This document shows, one piece after another, positions 10,554 through 53,171 of a stretch of 64,000 nt of DNA (positions within the stretch are counted from its first letter, which is position 1; each line of letters opens with the position of its first letter). Origin of the DNA: Candidatus Binatia bacterium (GTDB lineage Bacteria > Desulfobacterota > Binatia > HRBIN30); NCBI GenBank assembly GCA_044450645.1, contig JBIOJG010000015.1, positions 39,512 to 103,511 on the forward strand, written 5' to 3'. The notes below the pieces were generated by a model, which did not search any database, had not been told where the DNA came from, and saw only the letters and a program-made list of their open reading frames with translations. The position numbers and the translations under genes were made by a program.

Positions 10554-11705
10554 ATGGCGAATTCAATCATACGGCAACCCACTCGCTCGGTGCCTGTTGG
10601 GAAGGTGCAGATCGGCGGCAGCGCGCCTGTGGCCGTGCAAAGCATGTGCGCCACCAAGACGCGTGACGTCGAGGCGACGGTTGCCCAGACGCGGCAGCTG
10701 CAGCTGGCGGGCGCCGCCGTGGTGCGTATCGCCGTCGACAGCGACAAAGAGGTGGCGGCGCTGAAGGAAATCCGCGCCCAAACGGATGCCACGCTCGCCG
10801 TCGATTTGCAGGAGAATTATCGCCTGGCTGCGAAAGTGGGGTTGTACGTCGACAAGATCCGGTACAACCCGGGCCACTTGCACCACGTCGAACGCGACAA
10901 GCCGATCCGCGACAAGGTGGCCTGGCTGGTGTCTGTTGCCCGCGACACGGATTGTGCAGTTCGCATCGGCGTCAACTGCGGTTCGGTGGCACCGGAGTTT
11001 CTGGCGCGCTATCCGGGCGACCAGCTCGAAGCCATGGTGCAGTCGGCCGTGCATCACTGCACCCTCATGGAGGAGATGGGCTTCGAGCGCTTCGTGGTGT
11101 CGCTGAAGGACTCCGATCCGCGCAAGGTGGTCGAGGCCAACGCGCGCTTTGCGGCGGCGCGTCCGCACGTGCCTCTCCACCTCGGTGTCACCGAGGCGGG
11201 CATGCCGCCGGAGGGCGTCATCAAGACGCGGCTGGCGTTCGAAAAACTTCTGGCGCAGGGCATCGGCGACACCATTCGCGTCTCGCTCACGCTCCCGAAC
11301 GACCGCAAGCACGAAGAGGTCGAGGTCGCCCGCGCCATCCTCGACGACGTGGCGCACCGCCGGTTCATTTCGGTGCCCGACTTCGGCAAAGGACTGAACA
11401 TCATCTCGTGCCCGAGTTGCTCGCGCGTCGAGAACGAGCGCTTCGTTGAGCTGACCGCGCAGGTGCGGGAGCTCACCTGCTACGCGCAGCAGTATCGCAT
11501 CACCATTGCCGTGATGGGTTGTCGGGTGAACGGTCCCGGCGAAACCGATGACGCCGATCTCGGCCTGTGGTGTGGTCCGTCGGCCGTGAATCTGAAAAGG
11601 AAGGGCGTGAAAGTCGGCGTCTTCAGCTACGAGCAGGTGCTGCCGCGGCTACGTCAGGAGATCGATCGGCTCATCGCCGAGCGCACCGGCGTGCGCGTGG
11701 CTTGA
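10554..11705 (+). CDS. ispG: 4-hydroxy-3-methylbut-2-en-1-yl diphosphate synthase (flavodoxin) IspG/GcpE
   Basis: [31 protein letters not shown] … [19 protein letters not shown] … C-terminal [12 protein letters not shown] cysteine cluster for the [4Fe-4S] centre. ATG at 10554. The 5' extension in the ORF track was rejected. Confidence 0.9.
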
Positions 11706-11711
11706 CGCTCG

Positions 11712-12074
11712 GTGAGGTTTTGCGGCATGAAACCCGCGCCCATGACGTTCGGACCGACCGCGCTGCCGAAGATGATGATCGGCTTCGTTGTGCGCCGCTG
11801 CACCGTCGAGGTCGGCCACAAGCCGTCCCCGGAGGAGTTTGCGGCGTGGGCGAATAACTACAACGACGGTGACCGCACCTGCTGCCTCTTTGGCCGACCC
11901 ATCAGCGTGGACGAGGCGCGATTGATCTTGCGGCATCCGGCACGGCCGGTGAGCGCCCGGAGCGCGGCGCCGCACGAATGCGTGACGCCCGCCGACGCCG
12001 CGACGAGCACCGGATCCGCCACGGTCATATCGCTGCCGGCAGTTAAGGCGCGATTGAAAGCCCGTGCGAAGTAA
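11712..12074 (+). CDS. Hypothetical small protein (no recognisable domain)
   Basis: ORF between ispG and mutS2 on the same strand. No motif recognised. Could be a high-GC artefact. Confidence 0.25.
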   Translation: MRFCGMKPAPMTFGPTALPKMMIGFVVRRCTVEVGHKPSPEEFAAWANNYNDGDRTCCLFGRPISVDEARLILRHPARPVSARSAAPHECVTPADAATSTGSATVISLPAVKARLKARAK

Positions 12075-12081
12075 GCGGTCG

Positions 12082-12160
12082 GCTGTCAGCGTTCAGCTTT
12101 TGAAGCTATGTCTTGTATTGGCCATTGTTCCTCAAAGCTGACGGCTGAACGCTGATCGCT
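12082..12160. repeat. Imperfect inverted repeat / long hairpin in the intergenic region upstream of mutS2
   Basis: Left arm CTGTCAGCGTTCAGCTTTT and right arm AAAGCTGACGGCTGAACGCTGA. TCAGCGTTCAGC and GCTGAACGCTGA are perfect 12-bp reverse complements, separated by a ~35-nt AT-richer loop (ATGTCTTGTATTGGCCATTGTTCC). Confidence 0.6.
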
Positions 12161-12174
12161 GAAAGCTCTATCCC

Positions 12175-14499
12175 ATGCGCCCGCGCGATCTCGCTGCACT
12201 GGAATTCGATCACGTTCGCGAGCGGCTGGCGGACTTCGCGTGCTCGCCGGCGGGGAAGGATGCCTGTGGCGCGCTGGTACCGACCGGCGAACGCGGTCGA
12301 GCGGAGCAAGCCCTGGAAGCCGCCTGGCAATGCTTCCGGCTCCTAGAGCAGCAGGGCAGTATCCCGCTGTCGGAGTTCCCTGATATCCGTGCTTCCCTGC
12401 GTACGGCGGCGCGCGAGGGCGCCGTTCTCGACGGCAAATCTCTGCTCGAGATCCGCAGCGTTCTGGCCGTCCTGCACGACACCCGCACCTTTTTCAAGAA
12501 ACACGCGAAGCCGTTTCCGGCTTTGGCGGAGCTGCCCGATCAACTCGTGCCACTGCCTTCGTTGCACCAGACGCTGGCGCGGGCTCTGGATGAAAACGGG
12601 GATGTCAGCGACGACGCCAGTGACGAACTCGCAGAGGTGCGGCGCACGATTCGGCACCTTCGGCAAAAGCTGACGCGACGCCTGGAAGAGCTGTTGGCGC
12701 AGCCCCGGATGGCTGAGCTGCTCGGCGATCGCTACGTCACGCTGCGCAACAATCGCTTCGTCCTCCCGATCAAAACGGCCATGGCCAACCAGTTCGACGG
12801 CGTGGTGCAGGACCGTTCGGTGTCCGGCGAAACCGCATTCATCGAGCCGTTGTTCGCGGTGGAGCTCAACAACCACCTGTTGATGGCCAGCAAGGAAGAG
12901 GAATGGCTGGTGCGCCGGATTCTCGGCGACTTGACGGCGTTGGTGCGCGCCGAACACGAGACCCTCTTCGGCAGCTTTGCGGCCCTGGTGGAAATCGATG
13001 CGCTGGTCGCGCGTGCGAAGTTTGCGCAACGCTACCGCTGTACGCAGCCACGCTTTGATCAGGAGATCGTTCTCGAGCAGGCGCGCCACCCGTTGTTGCT
13101 GTTCGCCGGGCGCGAACTGATTCCGGTCGATCTGCGCATCCCGGTGGGGAAACGCGTGCTGGTGATTACCGGTCCCAATACGGGTGGCAAGACGGTGGCG
13201 CTGAAGACGCTGGGCCTGATGGCGCTCATGGCGCAGAGCGGCATGTTGATTCCGGTTGCCGAAGGCGGCCGCCTGCCGTGTTTTGAGGCGATCTACGCCG
13301 ACATCGGTGATGAGCAGAACGTCGAACGGAACCTCTCCACCTTCTCGGCGCACGTCGCGAATCTGACCGAGATCATCGAGCGACATCACGCGCCAGCACT
13401 CGTCTTGCTCGATGAGCCTGGAGTGGGTACCGATCCGGACGAAGGGGCGGCGCTGGGCATCGGTCTGATCCAGATTCTCGAAGCCAGCGGGGCGCATGTC
13501 GCTCTCAGTACGCACTACGCGCCCCTCAAAGTCTTTGCCTTGAGCCGGGAAACCTGCGTGACCGCCGCGGTCGATTTCGATGTGGCGGTCATGCTGCCGC
13601 GGTATCGACTGCAGTACCACTCCGTCGGCGAGAGCCTCGCCCTGCCGATCGCCCGCCGACTCGGGCTTCCGGTGGCCGTTCTCGACGCCGCAGAAGCCGC
13701 GCGTACGGAGCAGGCAAAGGCCTTGGCGACTGCGGTGGCGCGGTTGGAGGACAGCCGCCGCCGGTACGAGGAGCGTCTGGCGGAAGCCGACGAACGCGTT
13801 CGTGGCGCGGCACGGGCCGAGCAGGAAGCCAACCGCCTGCTGGATGACCTGCGCGAAAAGCAGCGGCGGCGGTGGGCGGATGAACTGAGCGCGGCACGCG
13901 ACTTCGTGCGCACGCTGCGCGAGCAAGGCCGGGAACTTTTGGCGGCCATCGAGCGGGGCGCGGCTGATCGCCGGGCGCTCTCCCGTTGGCTGCAGCAGCA
14001 AGAGGCGGCGATTGCCGAACACGAAAGCGAGATCGCCGAACAGCCGGTATCTTCCGGTCCTCCGCAGATCGGTGATCAGGTTGAAGTCGTCGACACCGGA
14101 ATTCGTGGCCAGTTGATGTCGGTGGAGGGAGAGCGCGCACGAATTCAGCGCGGCAGCCTCCGTTTTGAAGTGCCGGCTGGCCAGTTGCGGCGTCTCAGCG
14201 GCCAGCCGCCGGCTTCCGTCGAGATCCGCGTCGCGGCCGCGCCCGAAGACACGCCGCGGGAGATCACCTTACTGGGGCTGCGCGCGAGAGAGGCGGTGGC
14301 ACAGCTCGAGCGCTTTCTCGATCGAGCCGCCCAAGCCCACTTCCAGTCGGTACGCATCATCCACGGTGTCGGCAGCGGTGCCTTGAAACGGGCGGTCGAA
14401 GAGTATCTCTCCAGCTCACCGTACTGCGCCAGCTTCCGATCTGGAGAGGCGCGAGAAGGGGGCGCTGGCGTCACCATCGCGACGCTCGCCGTGGGCTGA
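12175..14499 (+). CDS. mutS2: Endonuclease MutS2 (MutS domain III/V ATPase plus C-terminal Smr domain)
   Basis: Walker A ITGPNTGGKTVALKTLGL. MutS signature STFSAH…DE (LLDEPGVGTDPDEG). C-terminal Smr domain (EIRVAAAPEDTPREITLLGLRAREAVAQLERFLD … RIIHGVGSGALKRAVEEYL). 774 aa. Confidence 0.9.
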   Translation: MRPRDLAALEFDHVRERLADFACSPAGKDACGALVPTGERGRAEQALEAAWQCFRLLEQQGSIPLSEFPDIRASLRTAAREGAVLDGKSLLEIRSVLAVLHDTRTFFKKHAKPFPALAELPDQLVPLPSLHQTLARALDENGDVSDDASDELAEVRRTIRHLRQKLTRRLEELLAQPRMAELLGDRYVTLRNNRFVLPIKTAMANQFDGVVQDRSVSGETAFIEPLFAVELNNHLLMASKEEEWLVRRILGDLTALVRAEHETLFGSFAALVEIDALVARAKFAQRYRCTQPRFDQEIVLEQARHPLLLFAGRELIPVDLRIPVGKRVLVITGPNTGGKTVALKTLGLMALMAQSGMLIPVAEGGRLPCFEAIYADIGDEQNVERNLSTFSAHVANLTEIIERHHAPALVLLDEPGVGTDPDEGAALGIGLIQILEASGAHVALSTHYAPLKVFALSRETCVTAAVDFDVAVMLPRYRLQYHSVGESLALPIARRLGLPVAVLDAAEAARTEQAKALATAVARLEDSRRRYEERLAEADERVRGAARAEQEANRLLDDLREKQRRRWADELSAARDFVRTLREQGRELLAAIERGAADRRALSRWLQQQEAAIAEHESEIAEQPVSSGPPQIGDQVEVVDTGIRGQLMSVEGERARIQRGSLRFEVPAGQLRRLSGQPPASVEIRVAAAPEDTPREITLLGLRAREAVAQLERFLDRAAQAHFQSVRIIHGVGSGALKRAVEEYLSSSPYCASFRSGEAREGGAGVTIATLAVG

Positions 14500-15980: not shown

Positions 15981-17732
15981 ATGTTGTGGAATCAAGGTCG
16001 GGTCCTCTTGTGTGCAGTCGTGGCGGTACTGGCATTTGGTGCGGCGGTCGCTTGGGGGCAGACACCCACGCCGCCAAAGGGCGACGTCAACTGCGATGGG
16101 CAGGTCAATGCTGCGGACATCGATGCGCTGATGAGCATCCTGTTTGGCGCCCCGGATACGTGCGGGACCGCCGACGTGAATTCGGACGGCCGGGTGACCG
16201 TTGCGGACGTGACGGCCGTCGAGTTGGCGATGCAGCCACCCGCCCCGACGCCAACACCGAGCCAGAGCCCGACGATCACGCCGACACCGCTTCCCAGTGC
16301 GACGCCGACGATCACCGGGACGCCAACCACCACGCCGACACCGACAGTGACGGGGACGTCGACGCAAACGCCGACGATAACGCGGACCTTCACGCTGACC
16401 CGCACGCCCACGATCACACCGACTGGCACGTGGACAATACGCCCAACCGCCACCGCGACGATGACGCCCACGCCCACCTCGAGCCGCACGCCGACCCTGA
16501 CCCGGACCGCGTCGCCGACCTTGACGGCAACCGTCACCCTGACGGCGACCTTGACACGGACGCCCAGCTTGACGCGGACGCCCACCTCGACGCCCACGGT
16601 GACAGGCACGCCGACGATCACAGCCACAGCCACGATTACGGCGACGCCGACCGCGACGCGCCCACCGTCACTGGGGCCTCAGATCACGTTCTTCGGTTTG
16701 GCGGACTCCCAAGGGTATCCGCTGCCCACGATGGGACCGGACGATCAAGGCAACACGCTCTACATGCCGAACTTCGGGTTCCATTTCTACATTGTGGTTG
16801 AGGCCATGAAGGGTTCGAGCCCCAGTAGCGCGGATCCCGGTAAGGTCACCTTCAACTTCAACCCGTCGGATCCGACGGTGCTGCCTGACCTGCAGATTGA
16901 GGCCGACCGTGACCTTGGAAATGGAAGTGCACTCGTGTGCGACAGTGCGCCGACAGGGCCGGGCGTGACGCCCACCGTGCCTCCGGGCGGCGTACCGGGA
17001 ATCAATTCTTCCACGACCGATCCACAAGTGATCGCCAACGCGCTGAATGATTTCGGCTGCCGCTTCGTCGCGCTCGACTCGCTCTACCCGTGCACGTATA
17101 ACGCCAAAGGAAACCTCGCTTTCGTGAACGCGAGCACCACAGTGCAGTATTGTACGGCTGCCCCAGGAGGCATCGGGCGGGAGTTGGAATTCCAGGCCGG
17201 TAACACGATCTTGACCATGAAACTGCGTGACACAGCCGGTCACCTCAGCGATCCCCAGTACATCGCGGTGCGCGTGCCGACGCTACCGCCGACCAATACC
17301 CCGGCACCACCCACGATGACGCCGATCCCCACTCTAAGTTTCACGCCGACCAGGACGCCCACGATCACGAGTACGCCCACGATCACCCTGAGCCCGACGC
17401 CCACCCCCACGCCGACCTTCACAGCCACACCGGTGAACACGCCGACGCCGACACTCACACCCACGGCGAGTCCAAGCCCTACGGCCGTCCCAACGCAGAC
17501 TGCCAGTGCGACGCCGACGATCACCGCGACGCCAACCACCACGCCGACACCGAGCCCGAGTTCCACTCCAACACTGAGTGCCACGGCTACGCCAAGCAAT
17601 ACGCCGGTTGCGACGGCCACACCGACACTCACGGCGAGCCCAACGCCCACCGCTAGCGACACACCGACGGCGACACTCAGTCCAACGCCGACTGCGAGCG
17701 CTACAGCGACCGCCACGGCGACGGCTACCTGA
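15981..17732 (+). CDS. Secreted protein: signal peptide, dockerin-like double Ca-binding module, long Thr/Pro-rich repeat linkers, central Cys-containing globular domain
   Basis: MLWNQGRVLLCAVVAVLAFGAAVAWGQ signal peptide. DVNCDGQVNAADIDALMSILFG and DVNSDGRVTVADVTAV are two dockerin/EF-hand-like D-x-N-x-D-G loops. Then ~140 aa of TPTxT repeats, a ~200-aa globular region with 4 Cys, and a second TP-rich tail. ATG at 15981. Confidence 0.75.
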   Translation: MLWNQGRVLLCAVVAVLAFGAAVAWGQTPTPPKGDVNCDGQVNAADIDALMSILFGAPDTCGTADVNSDGRVTVADVTAVELAMQPPAPTPTPSQSPTITPTPLPSATPTITGTPTTTPTPTVTGTSTQTPTITRTFTLTRTPTITPTGTWTIRPTATATMTPTPTSSRTPTLTRTASPTLTATVTLTATLTRTPSLTRTPTSTPTVTGTPTITATATITATPTATRPPSLGPQITFFGLADSQGYPLPTMGPDDQGNTLYMPNFGFHFYIVVEAMKGSSPSSADPGKVTFNFNPSDPTVLPDLQIEADRDLGNGSALVCDSAPTGPGVTPTVPPGGVPGINSSTTDPQVIANALNDFGCRFVALDSLYPCTYNAKGNLAFVNASTTVQYCTAAPGGIGRELEFQAGNTILTMKLRDTAGHLSDPQYIAVRVPTLPPTNTPAPPTMTPIPTLSFTPTRTPTITSTPTITLSPTPTPTPTFTATPVNTPTPTLTPTASPSPTAVPTQTASATPTITATPTTTPTPSPSSTPTLSATATPSNTPVATATPTLTASPTPTASDTPTATLSPTPTASATATATATAT

Positions 17733-17832
17733 GCCCTCGTTCCACCGCCAAGCATGTCGCCTGTCTCACGGGGAACGGGAAGAAGTTGATTTCACCAGTA
17801 ACGCGCACGCACATGAGCAAAGGAGGCTTACG

Positions 17833-18264
17833 ATGCAGTGGACAGGCTGGATCGGCCTAGCACTGGGAATGGTGGCGGTCAGCGCCGCCAAGGTTGGACC
17901 GCCGCCCGTCATTCTCGATCTCGGTCCAGTGGCGGCGACGCCGGCACCGACGCCCAAGTCGGCCGAGAAGAAGCGGCTGATCACCACGATTACGGTGCAA
18001 AACTCGCCGGAAGGCGAGAGCCGCATCTCCTTCGAAGCTACCGATATCGCAGATGAGGGCAAGAGCAAGGCCCGCACGCTCGCCCTGAAGACGTACTCGC
18101 TCGCTGAAGAGAAGCCGGAGCTGAATGCCTTGCGCAGCCGGATCGTGGATCAGATTCGTAGTCTGGAACGCGACATGCTCGACTACGCCGAGCGGGCCGG
18201 GCCACCAAAGGAACGTGCGCCTCTGAGTCCGGGCCAGTCGGGCGGGGCGCGGCCGTATCACTAG
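17833..18264 (+). CDS. Small secreted/membrane-anchored hypothetical protein
   Basis: AGGAGG RBS 6 nt upstream of ATG 17833. N-terminal hydrophobic signal/anchor (WIGLALGMVAVSAA), then a charged ~110-aa region with no recognisable motif. Sits between the two PT-repeat/dockerin proteins. Confidence 0.55.
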   Translation: MQWTGWIGLALGMVAVSAAKVGPPPVILDLGPVAATPAPTPKSAEKKRLITTITVQNSPEGESRISFEATDIADEGKSKARTLALKTYSLAEEKPELNALRSRIVDQIRSLERDMLDYAERAGPPKERAPLSPGQSGGARPYH

Positions 18265-18292
18265 AGACGCTTTGGTCTGAGACGTCGGAGAA

Positions 18293-20905
18293 CTACGGCG
18301 AGAGCTTGATCAGGGCGGGAACGTCCGCGGCGGTGACCGCGCCATCACCGTTGACGTCGGCACCGGACACGTCGATTTCCTCGAAAATCGTGCCGATCAC
18401 GTCGGCGAGGACGACCGAGGGCGTTGGCAAGGGCGTCAACGTCGGGGTTACTGACGGTGTCGAGGTCACCGACGGCGTCGGTGTTGGGGTCGGGGTGGCT
18501 TGTCGAAGTGTTGCTGTCGGCGTAACGCTCGGCTTGCGGGTACGGGTCGGAGTCGGCGAGCCGGTCGCAGTGACCGTCGGTGCCGGCGTCATGGCCGAGC
18601 CTGAGAAGAAGCGGCTGTACCCGAGCAGATTGCGCGCTGCCGCGAGTTGCGAGTTGGGCTTCTGGTCCCAGCAATACGTCAGCGTCGTGACGATCACCCG
18701 GCCGGATCCGTATTGGTACTCCGCCCAAGTCGGTAGGTTGCCATTGGCCAGCACCACGGTCGCGTCGCTCGGCAAGTTCGTCAGCGTACCCAGATCGGTT
18801 GGTCCCCAGTTGCTGAAGTCGTCCACGCCCAACATCTGACCGCCAAATTCGAGTCCGTGGATGTACGCATGGTCGGGGGCGAGGATGTCCTCACCCTCGT
18901 GTTGTGAAGCGCTGGAGAAGCCCACACCGCTCGGGCCTGGCGCGATGTTGGTCTGATCACCGAGTGTCCCGGCGACATTGATCACCGCCACCCCACCCAG
19001 GCTGACGAACTGCTCGATCAAGCCGCCCGGGGCCACCATCTGTTGCAGGTATGCGTAGTCAGCAGCGCTCAGCCCCGGCGCGATGTAAAGTACCTGGTAG
19101 AGGTTCCGTAAAGTCACCGGGTCGCCGCCTTTACCGCCGGCGAGATTCTGGAAGGTGTTGCTCCCATTGCTGAACCCGAGGCTAGTCGAGAGATTGAATG
19201 CGCACAGCCATTGGTTGTCCGTCGGATCGGTTTCACCGCGCGCGAGCAGGAACGAGATGTTGGGTGCCGGCGCTGCGGTGTTGGTCGGGGGCGGACTGGT
19301 AAAGGTTGGAGACGGAGTGGCGGTTGGCGTGTCCGTCGGCGTAGGAGTAAACGTGCCGGTCGGGCTCGGCGTGTCGCTTGAAGTGGGCGTGCCAGTGGCG
19401 GTCACCGTGGCCGTTGTGGTTGCTGTCGGCGTGGGTGTCGGCGATGCGGTAATCGTGAACGAGAGTGTGGCCGAGGGGCTTGCCGTGGCCGTCTCCGTCG
19501 GCGACGGCGTCTGCGTTGGTGTGGGTGTTGGTGAGGCCGTGCTTGTGAACGTGAGCGTGGCCGAGAAGGTCGCCGTGGCGGTTTCCGTCGGTGACGGCGT
19601 TGCCGTGTCGGTCGGCGAGGCTGAAGGAGTTGCCGTTGCCGTGGCGGTAGACGACGCGGTCGCGGTGAATGACGGCGTAGCCGATGGGGTGGAAGTGGCG
19701 CTGGGGGTGGCGGTTGGCGAAGCCGTTGGCGTGTTGCTGGCCGTCGGGGTCGGCGGACTCCAACACACGTTGACGAAGACCCTGGTGGTGCGCACCACTT
19801 CCAGCCCGGGCGTCGGGGCCAAGGCGGCCTGGTGCTCCACCCCTGCTTGCAGCGTGGCCATTTGCGACCATGCCCATGGCAGGTCGGTGCTCGGATCGGT
19901 GGTATAGGACGTCGAGTAGTAAGTGTATGTGGTCGTCAAGGCATTCGCGGCGCCACTGTAGATATCTCCCGCTACCTTGAGCTGCGTCCGGGCCGTGCTT
20001 CCCGTGAGCCCCAAGAAGGAGCGGCTCACGATGTTGACACTCACCGAAGAGATCGGTCCGGGCTGCGGTGTAGGGACCTGCAGCGTGTACAAGTCGGCGG
20101 CGGGACCGCTGTGACAGGTATTCTGGTCGCAAAAGACGTAGGAGAAGTCGCCATCGTCAGTCAGCTCGCACTGCCAGTTGGCGGAGAAGTTTATCGGCGT
20201 ATTGGCGGATAGGCCAGGGCCTGCCGGGGCGAGGGTCAGACAGTTCGGGGGCAACGTCGGCGTGGGCGCCGGGCTATTGGTCGGCGTGGTTGTCGCGGTG
20301 GGAGGCAGCGGCGTTGCGGTGCTGGTGGTCGTTGGTGAAAGAGTAAAAGTGGGCGTGGGAGAGGATGTCGGGCTCGGCGTGGGACTCGGAGTTGGGGTCG
20401 CGGTGGCCGTGTTCGTCGGCGTCAGAGTGGCGGTGCCTGTCGGCGTGCTCGTCGCCGTTGAAGTTTCGGTTGGCGTCAGCGTCGCCGTGCTCGTGGGCGT
20501 CACTGTCGGGGTGACGCTGGGCGTATTGGTTTGCGTCGCGGTAGGGGTATCCGTTGGCGTGGCCGTCGGCGTTGCCGTGTCCGTGGGCGTCACTGTCGGG
20601 GTGACGCTGGGCGTATTGGTTTGCGTGGCGGTAGGGGTATTCGTTGGCGTGGCCGTCGGCGTCGCCGTGTCCGTGGGCGTCACTGTTGGGGTGATGCTGG
20701 GCGTATTGGTTTGCGTGGCGGTAGGGGTATCCGTTGGCGTGGCCGTCGGCGTTGCCGTGTCCGTGGACGTCACTGTTGGGGTGACGCTGGGCGTATTGGT
20801 TTGCGTGGTGGTAGGGGTATCCGTCGGCGTGACCGGTGTCGTCGACTGTGCTCTTGCCGTGCCGGCTGCCTGCAGCGCCAGTAGCAACAGGGCCGCAGCG
20901 CGCAT
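18293..20905 (-). CDS. Large secreted Thr/Pro-repeat protein with C-terminal dockerin-like module
   Basis: ATG at 20905 gives signal peptide [21 protein letters not shown]-terminal 30-aa repeats ([30 protein letters not shown] ×4+), two Cys-containing globular regions, more PT/ST linkers. C-terminal [24 protein letters not shown] is dockerin-like. The 5' extension to 21121 in the ORF track was rejected. Confidence 0.75.
20493..20852. repeat. Four near-identical 90-bp direct tandem repeats inside the PT-repeat gene
   Basis: The unit GTGGGCGTCACTGTCGGGGTGACGCTGGGCGTATTGGTTTGCGT(C/G)GCGGTAGGGGTAT(C/T)CGTTGGCGTGGCCGTCGGCGT(T/C)GCCGTGTCC recurs at 20493, 20583, 20673 and 20763 with only a few substitutions. 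It encodes the 30-aa [11 protein letters not shown](V/I)[18 protein letters not shown] unit on the minus strand. Confidence 0.85.
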
Positions 20906-30689: not shown

Positions 30690-32906
30690 ATGCGCATCGT
30701 CCGCGTACTCGCGTTGCTGTTGCCGGTTTGGGTTGCGGCGGCGCAGGGGGTGCCTGAGCCGACGCGCAGTACCGAGGTGTTTACTGGTGGCGCCGAGGTA
30801 CTGTCGCCGCGCGAGAAGCCCGACAAACCGGTGACGACGTACTGGCGGGTACGACTGTCTCTCAAAATGACAGATGCGCGGCCGGGAGCTCACCTCCAAG
30901 TCTTGCTCCCACTGTCGGACGACCACCAGCAGATTCTCGGGCGTTCGGTGGAGATGGACGGGTTCAGCTACCGCGAGCAACCGGAACAGCCCAATTTGTT
31001 GGGATATTGGGCGCGCACTGCACCGTCGGCTGACCCGACGCAGATCGAGTACGACGTGAACGTGGCTCTGACCGATACGGCGCGTGCCATCCCGCCCACG
31101 CCATTGGCGGAGTACAGCGCGCCGGATGCCGAAAGCGGATACCTGCAGCCATCGCGGATGGTGCAAAGCAGCGATCCGGAATTCCGCCGTCGGGCACGTG
31201 ACTTGATCAAAGAAGCACGCACGGTCGAAGATGCCGCTTGGGCGCTCTTTCAATACACTGCGGCCTTCGTTCGGATCGGCCCTGGGGAGGCCCAAGAGGA
31301 TGCTTTGACGGTGCTGCGGCAGGAACGGGGGAACAGCGCTGGCAAGGCCCGGTTGCTCACAGCGCTGCTGCGCAGCATCGGCGTCCCCGCCCGCGTGGTT
31401 GGGGGACTGAAACTGGAGGACGCGACCAAGAAGCGTGCGACGATCTCGTGGGTGGAAGCCTATTTCGACGGGAACTGGGTGCCGCTCGACCCCAGCGGTG
31501 GATACTTCGGCTGGCTGCCGAATCACTATCTGGCGTTGTACCGCGACGACTTGCCGTTGATCGTGCACTCGGCAGGTTTGCCTCTCGAATACGATTTCTT
31601 CATCCATCGCACCAGCCGGGAGGCGATCGCGAGACATCCGGATCCTGCCCTGAAAGGAACCGGAAGCGCCGAAACGCAGGTGGGTATGGAACGGGTGCGC
31701 ACGGCGGCGAGTTACGTGGAACGGCCGGTTGCTTCGGTCGTCGTGATCGCCGACCAGAGCGTGCCCGACGCGGTGAGCGACCGCATGCTGCGAGAAGCGC
31801 AGGCGGAGCAGATCAACCTGGTGGTTTTGCACGCCCACTTCGAGTCACGTTACTTCCGCGAGCAGTACCTGCAGCGTCTGGTGGACAACAACCTCGGCCT
31901 CATTCGCAATGCGCACGTCCTGTTGATTGCTACGCATGACGATGCAGGGCTGTATGCGTTGATGACCCTGGGAGAGAAGAACCTGGCCCTCGGCGACATG
32001 CGGATCGTGATCTCGGGCAAGTTTCCGCAAGCGGTAGGCAAAGTCCTGGGAGCGGTGTTGTATCGCTTGGTGTCGGCTGGCGAGGTGGTCCTGGTGAACC
32101 AGCCGTCCGAGCTTCTGGGATTGTGGGAGATGGTTCGCGCCAACGTCATCGACGGGGTGCCGATGGTGGAGGAGGCGCGCAAGTGGGAGCTGGAGCCGCT
32201 GGTGCTGAATCAGAGCGTGTTGGATGATTTGGGTTTCTGGCGCAACCGAGTGGTCGGCGCCTGGGCTCGAGGGGTACGGGCACAGGTGCCGTTGCAGGCC
32301 CTGAACCTGATCCTCGTGCTCCCGGTGATTGCCGCGATCATCGTCGTGGCCCGTACCGTGATCGGCGTGGAGACCTTCGGCACGTTTTCCCCGGTCATCG
32401 TGTCACTAGCATTCCTCACCACCGGATTGCGCTGGGGGACCGCCATCTTTGCGGTGATCGTCGGAGTGGGCGCGTTGGTCCGCGCGCTGCTGCAACGGGT
32501 TCGACTGCAGTTGGTTGCCCGCCTGGCGATTTTGATCGCCGTGGTGGCGGGCGTGATGGCGGCGCTGACGGTGGTCGGAGCATCGTTTGGAATCGGTGCC
32601 TTGATGAACGTCAGCATCTTTCCCATGGTGATCATGTCGAACGTGATCGAGAACTTCTCGACGTCACAGGCTGAGTTCGGTACCCGCGAGGCCGTACGTT
32701 TGACTATCAACACTCTCGGCCTGGCAGCGATCTGCTACCTGGCGATCGACACGACGGGTCTGCAGTCGGTGCTGCTGGCTTTTCCGGAATTGCTGATCTG
32801 TTCCATTGCCATCGACATTGCCTTGGGGAAGTGGCGCGGTTTGCGGCTGCTGGAGTATTTGCGTTTCTTTGATTTGACGCGGCGCTCTGACCGATGGACT
32901 CCCTGA
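30690..32906 (+). CDS. Inactive transglutaminase-like domain fused to a C-terminal 7-TM domain (7TM_transglut-type)
   Basis: Signal peptide, then a periplasmic transglutaminase-like core (GNSAGKARLLTALLRSIGVPARVVGG) in which the catalytic Cys is Ser and the His position is lost (ISWVEAYFDGNWVPLDPSGG). Seven predicted C-terminal TM helices. Confidence 0.7.
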   Translation: MRIVRVLALLLPVWVAAAQGVPEPTRSTEVFTGGAEVLSPREKPDKPVTTYWRVRLSLKMTDARPGAHLQVLLPLSDDHQQILGRSVEMDGFSYREQPEQPNLLGYWARTAPSADPTQIEYDVNVALTDTARAIPPTPLAEYSAPDAESGYLQPSRMVQSSDPEFRRRARDLIKEARTVEDAAWALFQYTAAFVRIGPGEAQEDALTVLRQERGNSAGKARLLTALLRSIGVPARVVGGLKLEDATKKRATISWVEAYFDGNWVPLDPSGGYFGWLPNHYLALYRDDLPLIVHSAGLPLEYDFFIHRTSREAIARHPDPALKGTGSAETQVGMERVRTAASYVERPVASVVVIADQSVPDAVSDRMLREAQAEQINLVVLHAHFESRYFREQYLQRLVDNNLGLIRNAHVLLIATHDDAGLYALMTLGEKNLALGDMRIVISGKFPQAVGKVLGAVLYRLVSAGEVVLVNQPSELLGLWEMVRANVIDGVPMVEEARKWELEPLVLNQSVLDDLGFWRNRVVGAWARGVRAQVPLQALNLILVLPVIAAIIVVARTVIGVETFGTFSPVIVSLAFLTTGLRWGTAIFAVIVGVGALVRALLQRVRLQLVARLAILIAVVAGVMAALTVVGASFGIGALMNVSIFPMVIMSNVIENFSTSQAEFGTREAVRLTINTLGLAAICYLAIDTTGLQSVLLAFPELLICSIAIDIALGKWRGLRLLEYLRFFDLTRRSDRWTP

Positions 32907-33841
32907 TCGAACGCCTGCGGCGAGTGCGGCGGGAGGCGCTCGGTTTGAACCGTCGCAACCAGGAATTCCTGGCGCCGCTCAACCCTCCGCGTTTGATCGG
33001 GCTGGTTGACCACAAGGTACACACCAAGGAGATCCTGCGCAGACACGGCCTCCCGGTGCCGGATACCTTTGGGTGCTACACACGCCAGCGCGAGCTCGGA
33101 CTGTTGGCACGTGAGGTCGAGCGTCGCGCGGAATTCGTTCTGAAGCCGGCGCGCGGCGCCGGTGGTGACGGCGTGGTCGTGATTGCTGGTCGCGCCAACG
33201 GCCGCCTGGTGAAGGCCAGCGGGCCGAGTCTGCGATTGATGGACCTGGTGGCGCACGCTGCCGACATCATTGCGGGCGCCTTCTCGCTGAGTCAGGCGCG
33301 CGACGAGGCGGTCCTCGAATACCGCTTGGCACCGGAGCCGGCGTTGGGAGCGTTTAGCCCCGGAGGCATTCCGGACATTCGCATCCTGGTGGTGCGCGGG
33401 GTGCCGGTGATGGCGATGCTGCGCCTACCCACACGGAGCTCCGACGGGCGGGCCAACCTACATGTCGGTGGCGTCGGGGTGGGGCTTGATTTGCACAGTG
33501 GCAGGGCGGTACACGCCATCTGGCGGGACCGCCCAATTGTGGTCCATCCCGATACCCAACAGCCGTTCTCCGGATTGCGCGTGCCCGAGTGGAACGAGAT
33601 CCTCATGGCTGCGGCACAGAGCTACGAGGCAATTCCGCTCGGCTACTTCGGTATCGATATCGTCATCGATGCCAAGCTCGGTCCCTCGATCCTCGAACTG
33701 AACGCTCGTCCGGGCCTGAGCATACAGCTCGCCAACCGTCGGGGACTGCGCCGGATGCTTGACGAGTTGAATGCGCGGCATACGGAGAAGCTCGCTGCGA
33801 AGGATCGTGTCGAGGTTGGGCTGGAGATCTCCGCGACTTGA
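32894..33841 (+). CDS. ATP-grasp fold amidoligase (RimK-like alpha-L-glutamate ligase-related)
   Basis: FVLKPARGAGGDGVVV … IRILVVRGVPVMAMLRLP … GVGVGLDL … FGIDIVID … LELNARPGLSI are ATP-grasp features: K-loop, large-loop and the D/E-x-N Mg site. Its start overlaps the upstream stop. Confidence 0.75.
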   Translation: MDSLIERLRRVRREALGLNRRNQEFLAPLNPPRLIGLVDHKVHTKEILRRHGLPVPDTFGCYTRQRELGLLAREVERRAEFVLKPARGAGGDGVVVIAGRANGRLVKASGPSLRLMDLVAHAADIIAGAFSLSQARDEAVLEYRLAPEPALGAFSPGGIPDIRILVVRGVPVMAMLRLPTRSSDGRANLHVGGVGVGLDLHSGRAVHAIWRDRPIVVHPDTQQPFSGLRVPEWNEILMAAAQSYEAIPLGYFGIDIVIDAKLGPSILELNARPGLSIQLANRRGLRRMLDELNARHTEKLAAKDRVEVGLEISAT

Positions 33842-34658
33842 CCCGGCCTTGCAATCCCTGTTTGGTTACGCGGTGTCGCAGTTACAACTGTCCCTCCTGC
33901 TCTCGCTGCTGTGTGTGGCGACACTGGCGATTGCCGGGTGGCGTCCGTATGCCGAGGAGTTTCGGGAACGGTTGCCGCAGATCGTCGCGGCATTCTTGCT
34001 CGTCGGCATTCTCGCCGTGGCTGTCTTTTACCCCGTGACGTCCTTTGGGGAAGCCGAGGAGATTGATCCGGAGACCATCTGGTTCCCCTCCCTGCTGTTC
34101 GGGCACTGTATCCTGTCCGCATTCCTGTTCCTCTGGTGGCGGCTGCGCCGGGACATTGCGTTTGCCGCGTTTCTTCATCTGTCCTGGAGTGGCTGGTGGG
34201 ACAAGATCCGCCACGGCGTAGCCACCGGCTGCGGTGGTTGGGTTGTGACGGTGATGGCTACGGGTGCCGCTGCCGGACTGTTTGGCCTGACCGGCCGCCT
34301 CTCGGCGCCCACCGAGGCGCCGCCGCTGATCCTCTGGCTGGCCGAGCTGCCGATCCTCTACCGATTGATTATCGTTGGTGTGGCGATGACGGTCGAAGAA
34401 GCCTTCTTCCGTGGGTTTCTTCAGCCGCGCTTCGGGTTGCTGGTGTCGAGTATTCTGTTTGCTTTGAGCCATTTCAGCTATGGCCTGCCGTTCATGATTG
34501 TCGGCGTGTTCACCATCTCGCTGATCATCGGTCGTACGTTCGAGCGCGAAAGAGATCTGCTGCCGTGCATCATTGCTCACGGTATCTTCGATGGGGTGCA
34601 ACTACTGATCGTCTTGCCTTGGGTCGTACACACATGGTCGCCCGCGGGGCCGCTCTAA
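33771..34658 (+). CDS. CPBP-family (CAAX/Abi) intramembrane metalloprotease
   Basis: Multi-TM protein with motif 1 EEAFFRGFLQ, motif 2 FALSHF and motif 3 IIAHGIFDG. ATG 33771 lies inside the ATP-grasp gene. An alternative TTG/GTG start just after the 33841 stop (e.g. 33849) is equally plausible. Confidence 0.7.
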   Translation: MRGIRRSSLRRIVSRLGWRSPRLDPALQSLFGYAVSQLQLSLLLSLLCVATLAIAGWRPYAEEFRERLPQIVAAFLLVGILAVAVFYPVTSFGEAEEIDPETIWFPSLLFGHCILSAFLFLWWRLRRDIAFAAFLHLSWSGWWDKIRHGVATGCGGWVVTVMATGAAAGLFGLTGRLSAPTEAPPLILWLAELPILYRLIIVGVAMTVEEAFFRGFLQPRFGLLVSSILFALSHFSYGLPFMIVGVFTISLIIGRTFERERDLLPCIIAHGIFDGVQLLIVLPWVVHTWSPAGPL

Positions 34659-40545: not shown

Positions 40546-41757
40546 ATGCGAGAAGAATGCATCGTGACCAGGTACACGTCTCATGATCTCTGGCGTGGCG
40601 CCCGAGCGGCCCTGCTCGGCATCGTAGCCCTCGGCCTGTGCGGCTGCTTCCCGGGCGTCAAGCCCAATGCGTCAGACAAACTCATAGAGCTGATGTGGCC
40701 TGAGCCTCCACTCAAGACGCGCATCAAGTTCGTCGGCAATCTGACTGGAGAGCATGAGCTGGCCACCGGCTTCAACTGGAAGAAGGACCTCACCGAATTT
40801 CTCGCCGGCACCCCGACCACGGAGACGGAGCTGGCGAACCCGATGGGCATTGTCGTCTCCGCGGATGCACAGCGGGTGTACGTGACCGATCTTCCCCAGC
40901 AGCGCGTGTTCGTCTTCGACCTGGCCAACAAGAGCGTGAAAGCCTGGCCCGCAGAGCAGACCAAGGTGGCTGGTCCACTGGGGATCGCGCTCGATGCGGA
41001 CGAGAACGTGTACGTCGTCGACTCGACCGAGAAGAAGGTCGTCGTGCTCAACCGAGACGGCAAGCCCGTACGTACGTTTACGCACCCAAGCTTCATCCGC
41101 ATTACCGGCATTGCGGTCGATTCGAAGCGGGGACGCATCTACGTGTCCGACACCTCGCATCAGAAGTCGCCCGAGCACAAAGTCCGGGTCTTCGACCTGC
41201 AGGGGCAGTACGTCAAAGAGTTGGGCAAGGGGAAGGGTTTCGAAGAGGGGTATCTGCTCTTCCCGACCTATTTGACTGTGGATGACGCAGGGCTCGTCTA
41301 CGTTGCGGACTCGATGAATGCTCGCGTGCAGGCGTTCGATCCCGATTCGGGAGCGGTGGTGAGAACCTATGGGCAGCGTGGCACCGCCTACGGCGAGTTC
41401 GAACGGCCCAAAGGGCTCGCTCTCGATACCTTTGGCAATCTGTACGTCGCCGACTCAGGCTGGGCCAACGTCCAGATCTTCAACAGGAAAGGGCAGGTCC
41501 TGCTCTACTTCGCCGGTCGTGGCCGCTATCCCGGGCTACTCAACAACCCGGCCGGCATGGCCATCGACAAGAACAACCGTATCTACGTCGCCGACACCCA
41601 GAACTTCCGGTTGAGTGTTTATCAACTCGTGAACACGACCGCTGATGACAGTTTTGAGACCGCTGATCAGACGCCGCAGGGCAGCGCGCCCGGGCCGGTG
41701 AAGGCGTCGCGGGACAAGCAAGAAGCAATGGTACCAGGGACGGTTCGCAGCAACTAG
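40546..41757 (+). CDS. NHL-repeat beta-propeller lipoprotein (paralog 1)
   Basis: Lipobox LGLCGC. Six NHL repeats (YVTDLPQQRVFVFD, YVVDSTEKKVVVLN, YVSDTSHQ…VRVFD, YVADSMNARVQAFD, YVADSGWANVQIFN, YVADTQNFRLSVYQ). Confidence 0.85.
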   Translation: MREECIVTRYTSHDLWRGARAALLGIVALGLCGCFPGVKPNASDKLIELMWPEPPLKTRIKFVGNLTGEHELATGFNWKKDLTEFLAGTPTTETELANPMGIVVSADAQRVYVTDLPQQRVFVFDLANKSVKAWPAEQTKVAGPLGIALDADENVYVVDSTEKKVVVLNRDGKPVRTFTHPSFIRITGIAVDSKRGRIYVSDTSHQKSPEHKVRVFDLQGQYVKELGKGKGFEEGYLLFPTYLTVDDAGLVYVADSMNARVQAFDPDSGAVVRTYGQRGTAYGEFERPKGLALDTFGNLYVADSGWANVQIFNRKGQVLLYFAGRGRYPGLLNNPAGMAIDKNNRIYVADTQNFRLSVYQLVNTTADDSFETADQTPQGSAPGPVKASRDKQEAMVPGTVRSN

Positions 41758-41889
41758 GGCGCACACCGACTACCAGGGAGGCGTTCGGCCGAGGGAGGGT
41801 ACCGTATGACCTAAAGCACTGGAGGGGATGGCAATTGGACGTATCTAAGTCACAAAGTCACTAAACGAAAATTATGGGGGTTAACTTCT

Positions 41890-42693
41890 ATGAAGATGAA
41901 GATGTTGTTGTGGATGGCAGCTGCAGTATTACTGCTTAGCCCGCCCGTCCTCTGGGCCGCGCCAGGTGATCCCGGCACGGGTCTGGCGACAACCAATCAT
42001 GACTTCACCGACGCGGCGAATTACACGACCAGCACGCCTGTGGGTCTCTGTACGTTCTGCCACACGCCCCACAAGGCGCAGCACACTGCGCTGTTGTGGA
42101 ACCATAGCGATACGTCGAACACCTTTTCGTGGACCGACAACACGAAGACCGCAGCTGGCACGAGTCTACCGACGTTCACCAAGACCTGGAACGGCCCGAC
42201 GCCGAAGTGCCTCTCCTGCCATGACGGTAGCGTAGCGGTCGGCGATGTTGCCTGGTTCGATGAAAAAGCCCAGCTCATCACTACCACTAGCGTCACGCCT
42301 GGTATCCTCGATGCCAGCGGCAAAATCATCGATACATCGCATCAGGTGGGCGTCGGTGGCAGCATGAACGGCAACCACCCCGTGGTGGTTCCATATCCGG
42401 GCGTTGGCTCGAAGCACTATGCCGGCGGGAACAGCGGCACCAGCATCGTCACCGCGGAGTGGCAGGGTGACCCGACCGCCCTCGGTGTCGTGCTCTATAA
42501 GGCCAGTGACAACACCCTGGCGGCCAGCATCAACCGTGTGACCAACTCGCCTGTTGGCGCAGACAACCTCGGCGTCGAGTGCGCCTCGTGTCATGATCCG
42601 CACAACAAGCTCACCGTCGACGCGAAATTCCTACGCGGCATGATGACGGGGAACGACACCAATTACCTCTGCCTGAAGTGTCACATCAAGTAG
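41890..42693 (+). CDS. Secreted tetraheme c-type cytochrome
   Basis: Signal peptide MKMKMLLWMAAAVLLLSPPVLWA. Four CxxCH sites (CTFCHTPH, CLSCHDG, CASCHDPH, CLKCH). The N-terminal module is homologous to the start of the 12-heme protein at 47211. Confidence 0.85.
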   Translation: MKMKMLLWMAAAVLLLSPPVLWAAPGDPGTGLATTNHDFTDAANYTTSTPVGLCTFCHTPHKAQHTALLWNHSDTSNTFSWTDNTKTAAGTSLPTFTKTWNGPTPKCLSCHDGSVAVGDVAWFDEKAQLITTTSVTPGILDASGKIIDTSHQVGVGGSMNGNHPVVVPYPGVGSKHYAGGNSGTSIVTAEWQGDPTALGVVLYKASDNTLAASINRVTNSPVGADNLGVECASCHDPHNKLTVDAKFLRGMMTGNDTNYLCLKCHIK

Positions 42694-43081
42694 CCAGAGA
42701 GAGGATCTCGGACGGCATCGCAACCGATTGCGGCGATGATTGGACGGCCTGAGTAGCAAAGCACGCGGCGCGTACGCCGAGTGTAGCGCAGTCTAGGCCG
42801 TCCTTCGTCGCTCCCGGTTGTCCAGAGAAGGATGTTACTGTTCGATCGACATGCCTGCCGTACGGCGCCGCGCGCTCCGCCCGGAGTGATTCCCTTGCTT
42901 TTCTGTTGCCCGCGTGGTTGTTCTTTCCATCTACTTCAGAGCCGGCCCGTTGGAGCAGAGGGACCGACAAAATGGCGGGAGACAACCGCTTCGCGTTCTC
43001 GCGTGTGTATGTGCACGCACGGAACGCGCCTGCCGCGCCGTAACCCGTCCGGGTCGTGACAACCCTTTTCCTTGAGCAGTC

Positions 43082-43735
43082 ATGGTGTCCGCCGCGAGGC
43101 ACATGGGTACTGCCGTATTTTCCGCAACGATCCTGTTTTCCATTGCGGCCGGCGGTTGCGACCCTGCGATCCGCTACGAAGTGCTCAGCCGTGTGTTCGA
43201 CAACGTCCCGCCTCCCGGGGCGACACCGCCGCCGCGCCGCGCTAAACGGGTACGTCGCCAGCTGCCGGAGAAGGTTGCCAAGGCAGAAGGCACACCGGTC
43301 TCCACGCCGACGCCCGGCCCCCAAGGGCCGCCAATTGAGGCGGTAACCGAGTGGGACAAGGCGGTAGAGATGTTGCCGAAGGACGCGGCCGACGCACCCG
43401 ACTGGATGACGGCACTGTCGCAGGGAGTGATCGCGCCACGTTCGTCGCTGGATCCGAAGGAAGACACGCCCCCAGAACCGCTGCCGCTCGATGTCGAACT
43501 GGAGCCGTCCGGGAACCCCGATATGAAGGTCATCTTTCCGCACGCGGCCCACACGCAATGGTTGCAGTGCCCCAACTGCCATCCCGACATCTTCCAGATG
43601 CAGAAGGGGGCTGACCGAATCGCGATGGGGGACATTTTCGCCGGGCAGTTCTGCGGCAAGTGCCACGGGAAAATGGCGTTCGATGTAGCAACATCATGCC
43701 CGCGCTGCCACGTGCAGATGGGAGGAGGCGGATGA
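43082..43735 (+). CDS. Triheme cytochrome c7/c3-type lipoprotein
   Basis: Lipobox-like AAGGC. Pro-rich linker, then a ~75-aa c7-type domain with three CxxCH (CPNCH, CGKCH, CPRCH) and distal His residues (FPHAAH). Confidence 0.8.
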   Translation: MVSAARHMGTAVFSATILFSIAAGGCDPAIRYEVLSRVFDNVPPPGATPPPRRAKRVRRQLPEKVAKAEGTPVSTPTPGPQGPPIEAVTEWDKAVEMLPKDAADAPDWMTALSQGVIAPRSSLDPKEDTPPEPLPLDVELEPSGNPDMKVIFPHAAHTQWLQCPNCHPDIFQMQKGADRIAMGDIFAGQFCGKCHGKMAFDVATSCPRCHVQMGGGG

Positions 43736-44121
43736 GAGGCGAAACAGCGCGTTGGCATACGTCCCTTTCCCACGGGGAAAGTGGACCCTCGATCGGACTC
43801 ACTGCGGGTATCATCGCCGCGCTCTGCGTCCTCTCTCTCACCGCCGCCTACGCGGTGCCCGGCGACATCGTCTTTCCGCGCCAGGATACGCAAATCACAG
43901 AGGGCATTCCCAGCGCCGTTTTCCCGCACTGGTTCCATCGCATCCGCTATCGCTGTTTCGTGTGCCACCCCGATGTCTTTCCGATGGAAGTGACGAACGA
44001 GGGAATCACGATGGATGCCATCAACGCGGGAAAGGCCTGCGGAGCCTGCCACAATGGTCAGACCGCGTGGGCACCCTCGTTCGAAACCTGTACCCGGTGC
44101 CATGTGCCCCCGCCGGAATGA
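43732..44121 (+). CDS. Triheme cytochrome c7/c3-type protein (paralog)
   Basis: Signal peptide then a c7-type domain with CFVCH, CGACH, CTRCH and FPHWFH. ATG 43732 overlaps the upstream stop (ATGA). Confidence 0.75.
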   Translation: MRGETARWHTSLSHGESGPSIGLTAGIIAALCVLSLTAAYAVPGDIVFPRQDTQITEGIPSAVFPHWFHRIRYRCFVCHPDVFPMEVTNEGITMDAINAGKACGACHNGQTAWAPSFETCTRCHVPPPE

Positions 44122-49064: not shown

Positions 49065-49134
49065 GGCCGAGCGGGAGGCGGCGGACATGCTCTGATGTCC
49101 GCCGCCCTTTGCTGCTCACATGATTTGACGAATA

Positions 49135-49437
49135 CTACTTCTTCAAACCCACCAAATACGACACCACGGCGCCCAGATCTTCGTCACTGAGGGTCGCCTT
49201 CGGCATTTTGGAGTCCGCCTTCTTCGACTTCGGATCCTTGATGTACTCCTTCAAGTACGCCTCGCCCTTTGCCCCAGCGGCATCAAGTGCCCCACCGTTC
49301 TTTGCCATCGGTCCGCCTACCCCGCCGATGCTGTGGCACGTCTTGCACTTCTTCTCGTACACTCCGGCGCCGTCTGCTGCCCAGGCTACCTGAGAAAGAA
49401 TCGCGAGAGCGGCGATCCCGAACACAATCCGCTTCAT
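49135..49437 (-). CDS. Small secreted monoheme class-I cytochrome c
   Basis: Signal peptide MKRIVFGIAALAILSQVAWA. Single CKTCHSIGG. C-terminal Met (SKMPKA) as likely sixth ligand. 100 aa. Confidence 0.8.
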   Translation of the reverse strand: MKRIVFGIAALAILSQVAWAADGAGVYEKKCKTCHSIGGVGGPMAKNGGALDAAGAKGEAYLKEYIKDPKSKKADSKMPKATLSDEDLGAVVSYLVGLKK

Positions 49438-51888: not shown

Positions 51889-51939
51889 TATGCCCTTGTT
51901 TTTGTGCTCTTTTCTCTCGTCCTCTGCGAGAGGACGCGA

Positions 51940-53109: not shown

Positions 53110-53171
53110 GACGCCTCCTTTGTGGACAGACGTCGCTCTGGTGTCAAACGCGTGGGGGGAAAATGGCTGGC

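Follow-up and report, generated by a model that had tools for sequence, protein, structure and literature searches.

The window analyzed here is a stretch of 64,000 nucleotides from a Candidatus Binatia bacterium (contig JBIOJG010000015.1), and its subject is a locus of three neighboring genes, labeled A, B and C. We read the three gene products as a lineage-specific exported set that would act as tethered binding proteins of the cell surface or matrix and not as a cellulosome, and we give this reading about an even chance. All three proteins have a signal-peptide-like segment at the N-terminus. A and C are built as beads on a string, with Thr/Pro spacers of variable length between globular modules that have no known catalytic signature. 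The conserved Cys patterns of these domains fit folding outside the cytoplasm.

On the reading we favor, A, B and C would be exported by the Sec route, and their Thr/Pro segments would form extended spacers that are possibly glycosylated. The terminal dockerin-like modules of A and C would attach the chains in a Ca-dependent manner to a partner, which may be an envelope or matrix protein or a glycan. The globular domain of A (A-glob) and the two of C (C-glob1 and the ThuA-like C-glob2) would then be displayed at a distance and would serve in binding or adhesion. B, whose gene is always found between the other two, would be an exported accessory protein. By analogy, the locus may work like the non-cellulosomal surface proteins that bear dockerins. 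The features of the locus are listed below; other loci are cited by their L numbers.

15981-17732, plus strand: gene A, 583 aa (open reading frame (ORF) and translation; orthologues in the same gene order at L002 and L008)
15981-16058, plus strand: predicted signal peptide of A, residues 1-26, MLWNQGRVLLCAVVAVLAFGAAVAWG then Q (...AVAWG/Q), read from the sequence
16077-16220, plus strand: dockerin-like module of A with calcium loops DVNCDGQVNAAD and DVNSDGRVTVAD and two conserved Cys (Pfam, solved-structure search)
16233-16664, plus strand: Thr/Pro linker 1 of A, ~145 aa (composition)
16665-17282, plus strand: A-glob, residues ~229-434, beta-rich with one helix and four conserved Cys
17283-17729, plus strand: C-terminal Thr/Pro tail of A, ~150 aa, without a sorting signal
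17821-17826, plus strand: ribosome-binding site AGGAGG of B, 6 nt upstream of the ATG
17833-18264, plus strand: gene B, 143 aa, between A and C
18293-20905, minus strand: gene C, 870 aa (ORF; long-ORF orthologues at L002 and L008)
20846-20905, minus strand: predicted signal peptide of C, cleavage before Q, read from the sequence
20261-20845, minus strand: N-terminal Thr/Pro linker of C, ~195 aa
20474-20835, minus strand: tandem repeat within that linker, period 90 bp, 4.0 copies, 94% matches (Tandem Repeats Finder)
19748-20260, minus strand: C-glob1, residues 216-386, beta-rich
19277-19747, minus strand: Thr/Pro linker 2 of C, ~157 aa
18587-19276, minus strand: C-glob2, residues 544-773, alpha/beta, predicted class I glutamine-amidotransferase-like (ThuA/STM3548-like) fold
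18410-18586, minus strand: Thr/Pro linker 3 of C, ~60 aa
18296-18409, minus strand: half dockerin of C, comprising a helix 1 remnant, one calcium loop and a helix

A and C are convergent, and the stop codons of B and C lie 28 nt apart. Thr makes up 24% and Pro 13-15% of both large proteins, whose Thr/Pro linkers span 60-195 residues. Across six frames of the whole 64-kb window, Thr/Pro-rich stretches were found in A and C only, and a regular-expression scan of the window for D-x-N-x-D-G...D loops returned just three, two in A and one in C. The GC skew swings from -0.125 over A to between +0.14 and +0.18 over C because of the codon bias of the two genes. The 90-bp repeat in the N-terminal linker of C, with its four copies, appears to be recent. 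The start codon of C was assigned by inference, there being no convincing ribosome-binding site upstream, and a promoter and terminator scan gave nothing informative. A reading of these letters made earlier without database searches (the sequence-only reading) had described two convergent proteins with signal peptides, D-x-N-x-D-G loops and long Thr/Pro linkers, flanking a small secreted ORF; the convergence, the intervening ORF and each of these features are present as described.

The long ORFs of A and C are real genes, in which conserved domains are joined in one frame. The converse, that the Thr/Pro ORFs are not genes and that the real genes are opposite-strand Gly/Val-rich ORFs or short fragments, we regard as hardly credible, even though a crude third-position GC test favors the opposite-strand ORFs and automated annotation has departed from the long ORFs twice. 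In an NCBI Binatia genome carrying a 99%-identical C, only a 274-aa fragment is annotated, called from an internal GTG (window 18293-19117). The Joint Genome Institute gene caller likewise cut the L008 orthologue of C (1115 codons; L008 8224-10912) into four pieces of 73 aa (plus strand), 210 aa (minus), 252 aa (minus) and 303 aa (plus), of which the middle two lie on the opposite strand. Against this, A (583 codons) and C (870 codons) stay open without interruption and each links its conserved domains in a single frame. The same layout recurs at L002 and L008, with C-glob1 also present in a partial ORF at L006, while the linkers are highly diverged. The domains have homologues in number (209 for A-glob and 86 for C-glob2), and the opposite-strand products are Gly/Val low-complexity sequences, which we read as the mirror of the Thr/Pro codons.

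The set is conserved within Binatia. When species-representative genomes were scanned for the A domain, five loci were found, all in metagenome-assembled genomes (MAGs) labeled Candidatus Binatia or "uncultured delta proteobacterium". At L002 (Binatia SPRUCE 133) the gene order is MutS2, acyl-CoA dehydrogenase, A, B, C, HisS, AspS. At L008, A-B-C again stands beside HisS-AspS, with three extra genes before the acyl-CoA dehydrogenase. Counting that of the window, three Binatia genomes have A, B and C in this order next to hisS and aspS. A C-like gene adjoins hisS at both L006 and L011; the C-like ORF of L006 is partial, being cut at the contig end, and carries C-glob1. When the window proteins were compared with those of L002 and L008, identity was 79-86% for the flanking housekeeping proteins, 75% for B, 63-65% for C-glob2, 43-50% for C-glob1, 47-49% for the dockerin module of A and 43-45% for A-glob. 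The domains of A and C diverge much faster than the neighboring housekeeping genes. Spacer length varies too: linker 1 of A measures 145, 237 or 316 aa across three genomes, and the C-terminal tail of A measures 150 aa in the window, 134 aa at L002 and 0 at L008. The A orthologues have comparable hydrophobic N-termini.

Some of the orthologues carry a Cys-rich module of ~40 aa with the consensus (N/S)DCCQC.P.CG.P..G.C..GC.PVF.A.C.G..G.C.TFTPT, in one to three copies inside the Thr/Pro linkers. These CCQC modules occur in C orthologues, where they stand in place of the N-terminal Thr/Pro linker of the window's C, and in one A orthologue (L002 7611-10757, minus strand; L008 7565-10909, plus, and 11524-13374, minus; L006 19024-20916, plus; L011 20033-21013, plus). 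The module has no Pfam match and is not present in the window's own A or C.

The N-terminal module of A is a dockerin at the sequence level. Residues 33-80 match Pfam Dockerin_1 (PF00404) with 32 bits against a cut-off of 22.9, covering profile positions 1-52 of 57. The loops DVNCDGQVNAAD (nt 16083-16121) and DVNSDGRVTVAD (nt 16173-16211) are 30 residues apart and belong to two tandem repeats of calcium loop plus helix, the arrangement that defines a type I dockerin, in which each repeat measures ~22 residues and each loop 12. Compared with the sequences of solved structures, the module had 18 matches, all of them cellulosomal dockerins (best 4fl4_A, E 5e-5), and its loops align in register with 4fl4, 1daq and 2mte.

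C has a single loop (18320-18358) where a type I dockerin has two. Its tail reaches 18.4 bits with Dockerin_1, below the cut-off of 22.9, and covers profile positions 29-54 only, that is, the second half. Among the tails of the C-glob2 family, 40 of 86 have two loops and another 40 have one; the clade of the window's C is without loop 1 and keeps LxDVIGxIFxE....ADxNGDGxVTAADVxALI. A profile of the family tails placed dockerins at the top (2ccl_B, E 3.7e-5), with EF-hand proteins at weaker E-values. The A paralogues mostly carry a Cys-bracketed variant, C.GDCNGDG.VTVDEL...C....D.NGDG.VTVDE......GC, which was seen in 24 of the 29 with a long enough N-terminus. Single-loop dockerins can be functional and bind cohesins, as in Ruminococcus flavefaciens (PMC12270676).

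The term dockerin-like is therefore sound for A, applies to C in part and is a borderline case in the wider A family. The sequence-only reading had assigned dockerin-like modules to both proteins. That assignment stands for A, whose N-terminal double module is a type I dockerin by Pfam and by 18 of 18 matches among solved-structure sequences, and only half stands for C, whose tail is incomplete and below the cut-off. As for the possibility, also raised there, that a profile search would class the loops as generic EF-hand sites, A and the C family tail rank as dockerins, whereas the A paralogues more often match EF-hand_1.

The globular domains, previously described as novel and Cys-containing, belong to no Pfam or NCBIfam family and do contain Cys. 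NCBIfam gave no name to A, B or C. When A-glob, C-glob1, C-glob2 and B were searched against the sequences of solved structures, as single sequences and as profiles, nothing significant was found.

A-glob has 209 homologues, all unnamed, and a Pfam domain was found in none of them (0 of 209). In alignment A1, C95 and C135 are invariant and C146 and C166 near-invariant; conserved motifs include PDLQI, LGNGS..VCD, GGVPG, ALNDFGCRF and VQFC. An AlphaFold2 model built from 121 sequences has a predicted local distance difference test score (pLDDT) of 94.7 and shows eight strands and one helix. A Foldseek search of solved structures with this model returned none at E<=1e-3, and the best template-modeling scores (TM-scores), 0.25-0.30, were to p53 core-like sandwiches. 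The family is multi-copy and modular, with a usual layout of signal peptide, calcium-loop pair, Thr/Pro linker and domain. Kinship between A-glob and C-glob1 was ruled out, the hhalign probability being 0.4%.

Paralogues of A-glob, arranged in tandem genes or paired within one long ORF, are found at L001 (6001-8350), L003 (3493-6591), L004 (5647-8358) and L010 (8429-11077). Peptidase_M10 genes are present a few kb or less from paralogues at L010 and L011 and not elsewhere, and the paralogue neighborhoods have no consistent functional partner.

C-glob1 is characterized by the motifs NC, NWQC, D.D..YV, I.SV, SR, NP.T..W.W...LQAGV and VRTT.VFV.VCW. It has no Pfam family, and a word-indexed search of the protein database gave no match; in Binatia it was found by tblastn or by hidden Markov model (HMM) search at L002, L008 and L006. 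The domain is missing from the protein database because gene callers mis-split genes with Thr/Pro linkers. Many of the database homologues begin within Thr/Pro linkers. At the DNA level, by contrast with the protein search, C-glob1 was found at no fewer than 79 metagenome loci (at least 79) and on 28 viral contigs.

Outside Binatia, C-glob1-like domains stand in extracellular multidomain proteins, often in tandem, where they are accompanied by Cohesin (L034), by Cohesin and Dockerin_1 (L061), by PKD and CARDB, by I-set or by a prepilin N-methylation motif. The L034 (2816-5434, plus strand) and L061 (2679-6239, plus strand) proteins, which are from other organisms, have four or five tandem C-glob1-like domains together with Cohesin. 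With Cohesin and Dockerin_1 in one protein, the L061 architecture could self-assemble.

The viral copies of C-glob1 fall in PHROG families 2448 and 6368. An iterated C-glob1 profile reaches the C-terminal domains of YSD1_33 (E ~1e-17) and YSD1_32 (E ~1e-16) of Salmonella phage YSD1, E-values that are calculated for a nominal database of one million sequences from a search of a small sequence set. The match comprises the C-terminal 120-130 aa of the two proteins, and YSD1_34 matches more weakly (L119 6001-9252). The YSD1_32 and YSD1_33 genes belong to a Chi-like phage tail module, between tail-fibre and lysis genes. These settings hint that C-glob1 may serve surface recognition. Papers on phage YSD1 are silent on YSD1_31 to YSD1_35. 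A match of the C-glob1 profile to a LysM receptor kinase (E 0.009, bias 5.9) was rejected, as the alignment looked compositional.

C-glob2 has 86 homologues of ~300 aa, typically laid out as domain, Thr/Pro linker and dockerin, and no Pfam family was found for it at E<=1. Its structure model has a pLDDT above 93. The best Foldseek match was 2gk3_E (STM3548; E 3.8e-7, probability 1.0, target TM-score 0.56); other matches were 3soz (STM1381), the middle domain of glycoside hydrolase family 42 (GH42), Pdx2, PuuD and the ThuA-like 4e5v, as well as 1q7r, 2nv2 and 6vtv. By Foldseek comparison of the model, C-glob2 is predicted to have the fold of the class I glutamine amidotransferase-like superfamily. 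The strand-turn motif expected at the nucleophile elbow, as read from the sequence, has no Cys, and a glutaminase role is unlikely for this reason. Just one Cys is near-invariant, that of TYCWD close to the C-terminus. Many polar residues are near-invariant, among them E, H, D, R and Y. The motifs GG-x-x-V-I-N and YG-x-GRV-I-V-T-T-L resemble ThuA-type motifs.

These properties bear on a different account of the locus, in which the calcium modules have a purely structural part, as calcium-stabilized elements of EF-hand type without a docking role, and A and C are enzymes or ligand binders, either secreted or free in the periplasm. The modules of the A paralogues are Cys-bracketed and match EF-hand in Pfam more often than dockerin, and one loop has been lost in C. 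The fold of C-glob2 is common to Pdx2, PuuD, GMP synthase and ThuA-like proteins, and its numerous near-invariant polar residues would suit such a role. However, in two unrelated domain families the modules are always chain-terminal behind long spacers, as docking modules are; there is no catalytic family signature; and the amidotransferase nucleophile position of C-glob2 seems to have no Cys. On balance we find this account rather doubtful.

B consists of a predicted signal peptide, a PPPV..DLGPV.PTP.PTP stretch, a conserved block RLI(S/T)(S/T)ITVQN..G....FEATD and a C-terminal helix-like segment. An exhaustive search gathered its family into 19 cluster representatives that share a conserved core (alignment A3). 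Its orthologues at L002 and L008, 75% identical as given above, likewise lie between A and C. No relatives of known function were found for B in Pfam (Cohesin included), NCBIfam or solved structures. The 143-aa secreted ORF that had been described with its AGGAGG site is a real, conserved and narrowly distributed exported protein. That B might bind the dockerin modules is a guess.

From the dockerins, the sequence-only reading had inferred a cohesin-bearing scaffold encoded outside the window. No cohesin (PF00963) is present among the 46 window proteins scanned with Pfam, in agreement with that reading, and none is present in the precomputed Pfam lists of neighbors at six related loci, L006-L011. 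No Pfam match gives A, B or C a cohesin identity, and a cohesin is also missing from the 50 best matches that Foldseek gave for the A-glob model. At E<=1, neither Pfam nor NCBIfam assigned any part of A or C to a glycoside hydrolase, esterase, lyase, carbohydrate-binding or other enzyme family. The cellulosome analogy is without cargo because A and C have no carbohydrate-active catalytic module.

It is against these results that a cohesin-dockerin complex has to be judged, in which a scaffold encoded elsewhere docks A and C as in a cellulosome or through an adaptor scaffoldin. The module of A is after all a dockerin in sequence, half of the C-glob2 family has complete two-loop dockerins that pass the Pfam cut-off, and cohesin binding is possible for single-loop dockerins (PMC12270676). 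In other organisms, moreover, C-glob1-like domains share proteins with Cohesin or with Cohesin and Dockerin_1, as at L034 and L061. We nevertheless hold such a complex to be unlikely, given the want of a cohesin in the window proteins and the L006-L011 neighbor lists and of carbohydrate-active catalytic modules in A and C. Dockerin-like modules are also reportedly common in genomes without cohesins (Peer and coworkers, 2009), which we count against a scaffold. Finally, a survey of 305,693 RefSeq genomes placed cellulosome producers in 33 species, mainly of Acetivibrio, Ruminococcus, Ruminiclostridium and Clostridium (PMC11557425), although this is weak evidence here, as RefSeq barely covers MAGs.

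A more speculative proposal, which we think improbable, is that Binatia use dockerin-like modules to build a protein network, extracellular or on the cell surface, without canonical cohesins, in which the receptor is the multi-copy, Cys-stapled A-type beta domain, B or C-glob1. If true, this would be a second, independently evolved class of dockerin partner, in a widespread uncultured lineage of soil and peat.

Several points weigh against the reading of A, B and C as a tethered binding set. No binding partner of the dockerin-like modules was identified. Binatia are presumed to have two membranes, and the sequences show no lipobox, no C-terminal sorting motif and no signal for secretion across, or anchoring in, the outer membrane. 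In Pfam, the modules of the A paralogues are EF-hand_1 in 8 of 121 and Dockerin_1 in 3 of 121. The description of the globular modules as non-catalytic reflects the lack of family matches and, as read from the sequence, of a nucleophile Cys, and ThuA-like domains may be enzymes. The structure model of C-glob1 is unreliable (pLDDT <50), and when the profile of the domain is compared directly with YSD1_33 the match is weak (probability 3.9%), the two being connected by iterated profiles alone.

Thr/Pro linkers are O-glycosylation substrates in other bacteria, and the sequence-only reading had pointed to a PMT-like glycosyltransferase of the C fold class (GT-C) 33 kb from A and C. The gene exists: for 53172-54833 (minus strand), Pfam PMT_2 gives 29.8 bits, where the cut-off is 26.1. 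The enzyme, the only candidate for glycosylating the linkers, is of a generic kind without an NCBIfam name, and its gene lies in a separate cluster beside two matches to Glyco_trans_1_2 (glycosyltransferase-like), one of them below the Pfam cut-off. No link was found that ties this enzyme to A or C.

Known systems offer partial parallels. None of the papers searched mentions both Binatia and dockerin. With the type I dockerins (PF00404) of Acetivibrio thermocellus Cel9, CelS and Xyn10B, the module of A has in common two tandem F-hand calcium loops with their helices, D or N at loop positions 1, 3, 5, 9 and 12, and a chain-terminal position behind a Thr/Pro linker. It differs in being N-terminal and in its two conserved Cys, which probably form a disulfide; the cargo of A is not a carbohydrate-active enzyme, and the host belongs to Binatia, not Clostridia. 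The tail of C is closest to the truncated "group 2" dockerins of R. flavefaciens (PMC12270676), in that it is reduced to the C-terminal loop and helix of an ancestral two-loop dockerin. Cohesin binding is experimental in that case, whereas C is known from sequence alone, and the lineages are unrelated.

With the class I glutamine-amidotransferase-like proteins that have no catalytic Cys (4e5v, 2gk3 and the GH42 middle domain), C-glob2 is predicted to share an alpha/beta fold; unlike them, it belongs to an apparently exported protein, in which it has a Thr/Pro linker on either side and is fused to a dockerin. C-glob1 shares with PHROG 2448/6368, including YSD1_32 and YSD1_33, the motif set D.Y, I.SV, R, Y..Y...NP.T..W.W...LQ.GV, to which the Binatia domain adds conserved Cys and an embedding in Thr/Pro linkers.

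The PT-box linkers of Cellulomonas fimi CenA and Cex and of actinobacterial O-mannosylated proteins are known O-glycosylation substrates. Like the spacers of A and C, they are long (P/T)n segments between folded modules; those of A and C are much longer, at up to 195 aa (316 aa in an orthologue), and their glycosylation is only a predicted possibility. Peer and coworkers are also said to have described, in 2009, dockerin-like modules on secreted non-cellulolytic proteins, often with no recognizable cohesin in the genome, a situation like that of A and C. What sets the present case apart from such non-cellulosomal proteins is a conserved three-gene locus and domain families without a Pfam entry.

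Dockerin-like modules outside cellulosomes are common, and a conserved three-gene locus provides a small, defined set of candidate partners for them. The locus and its orthologues also bring to light four uncharacterized modules, namely A-glob, C-glob1, the dockerin-fused ThuA-like domain and, in the orthologues, the CCQC module. In the cases seen, genes with Thr/Pro linkers in high-GC MAGs are mis-annotated, and such domains are consequently under-represented in protein databases. Binatia are an abundant, uncultured class of soil and peat.

Elsewhere in the window, 50734-54833 and 61621-63990 hold the PMT_2 cluster and, further on, a 789-aa fusion of a glycoside-hydrolase-family-2 triose-phosphate isomerase (TIM) barrel with a family-2 glycosyltransferase. 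The region 40546-49437 resembles an extracytoplasmic electron-transfer module. It encodes NHL-repeat beta-propeller proteins (40546-41757 and 46183-47214), multihaem c-type cytochromes (41890-42693, 43082-43735 and 47211-49064), a 722-aa protein without a Pfam match (44015-46183) and a small cytochrome c (49135-49437). At 30690-34658, a transglutaminase-core/7TM_transglut fusion, a sugar-transfer-associated ATP-grasp protein and an Rce1-like CAAX protease are encoded consecutively.

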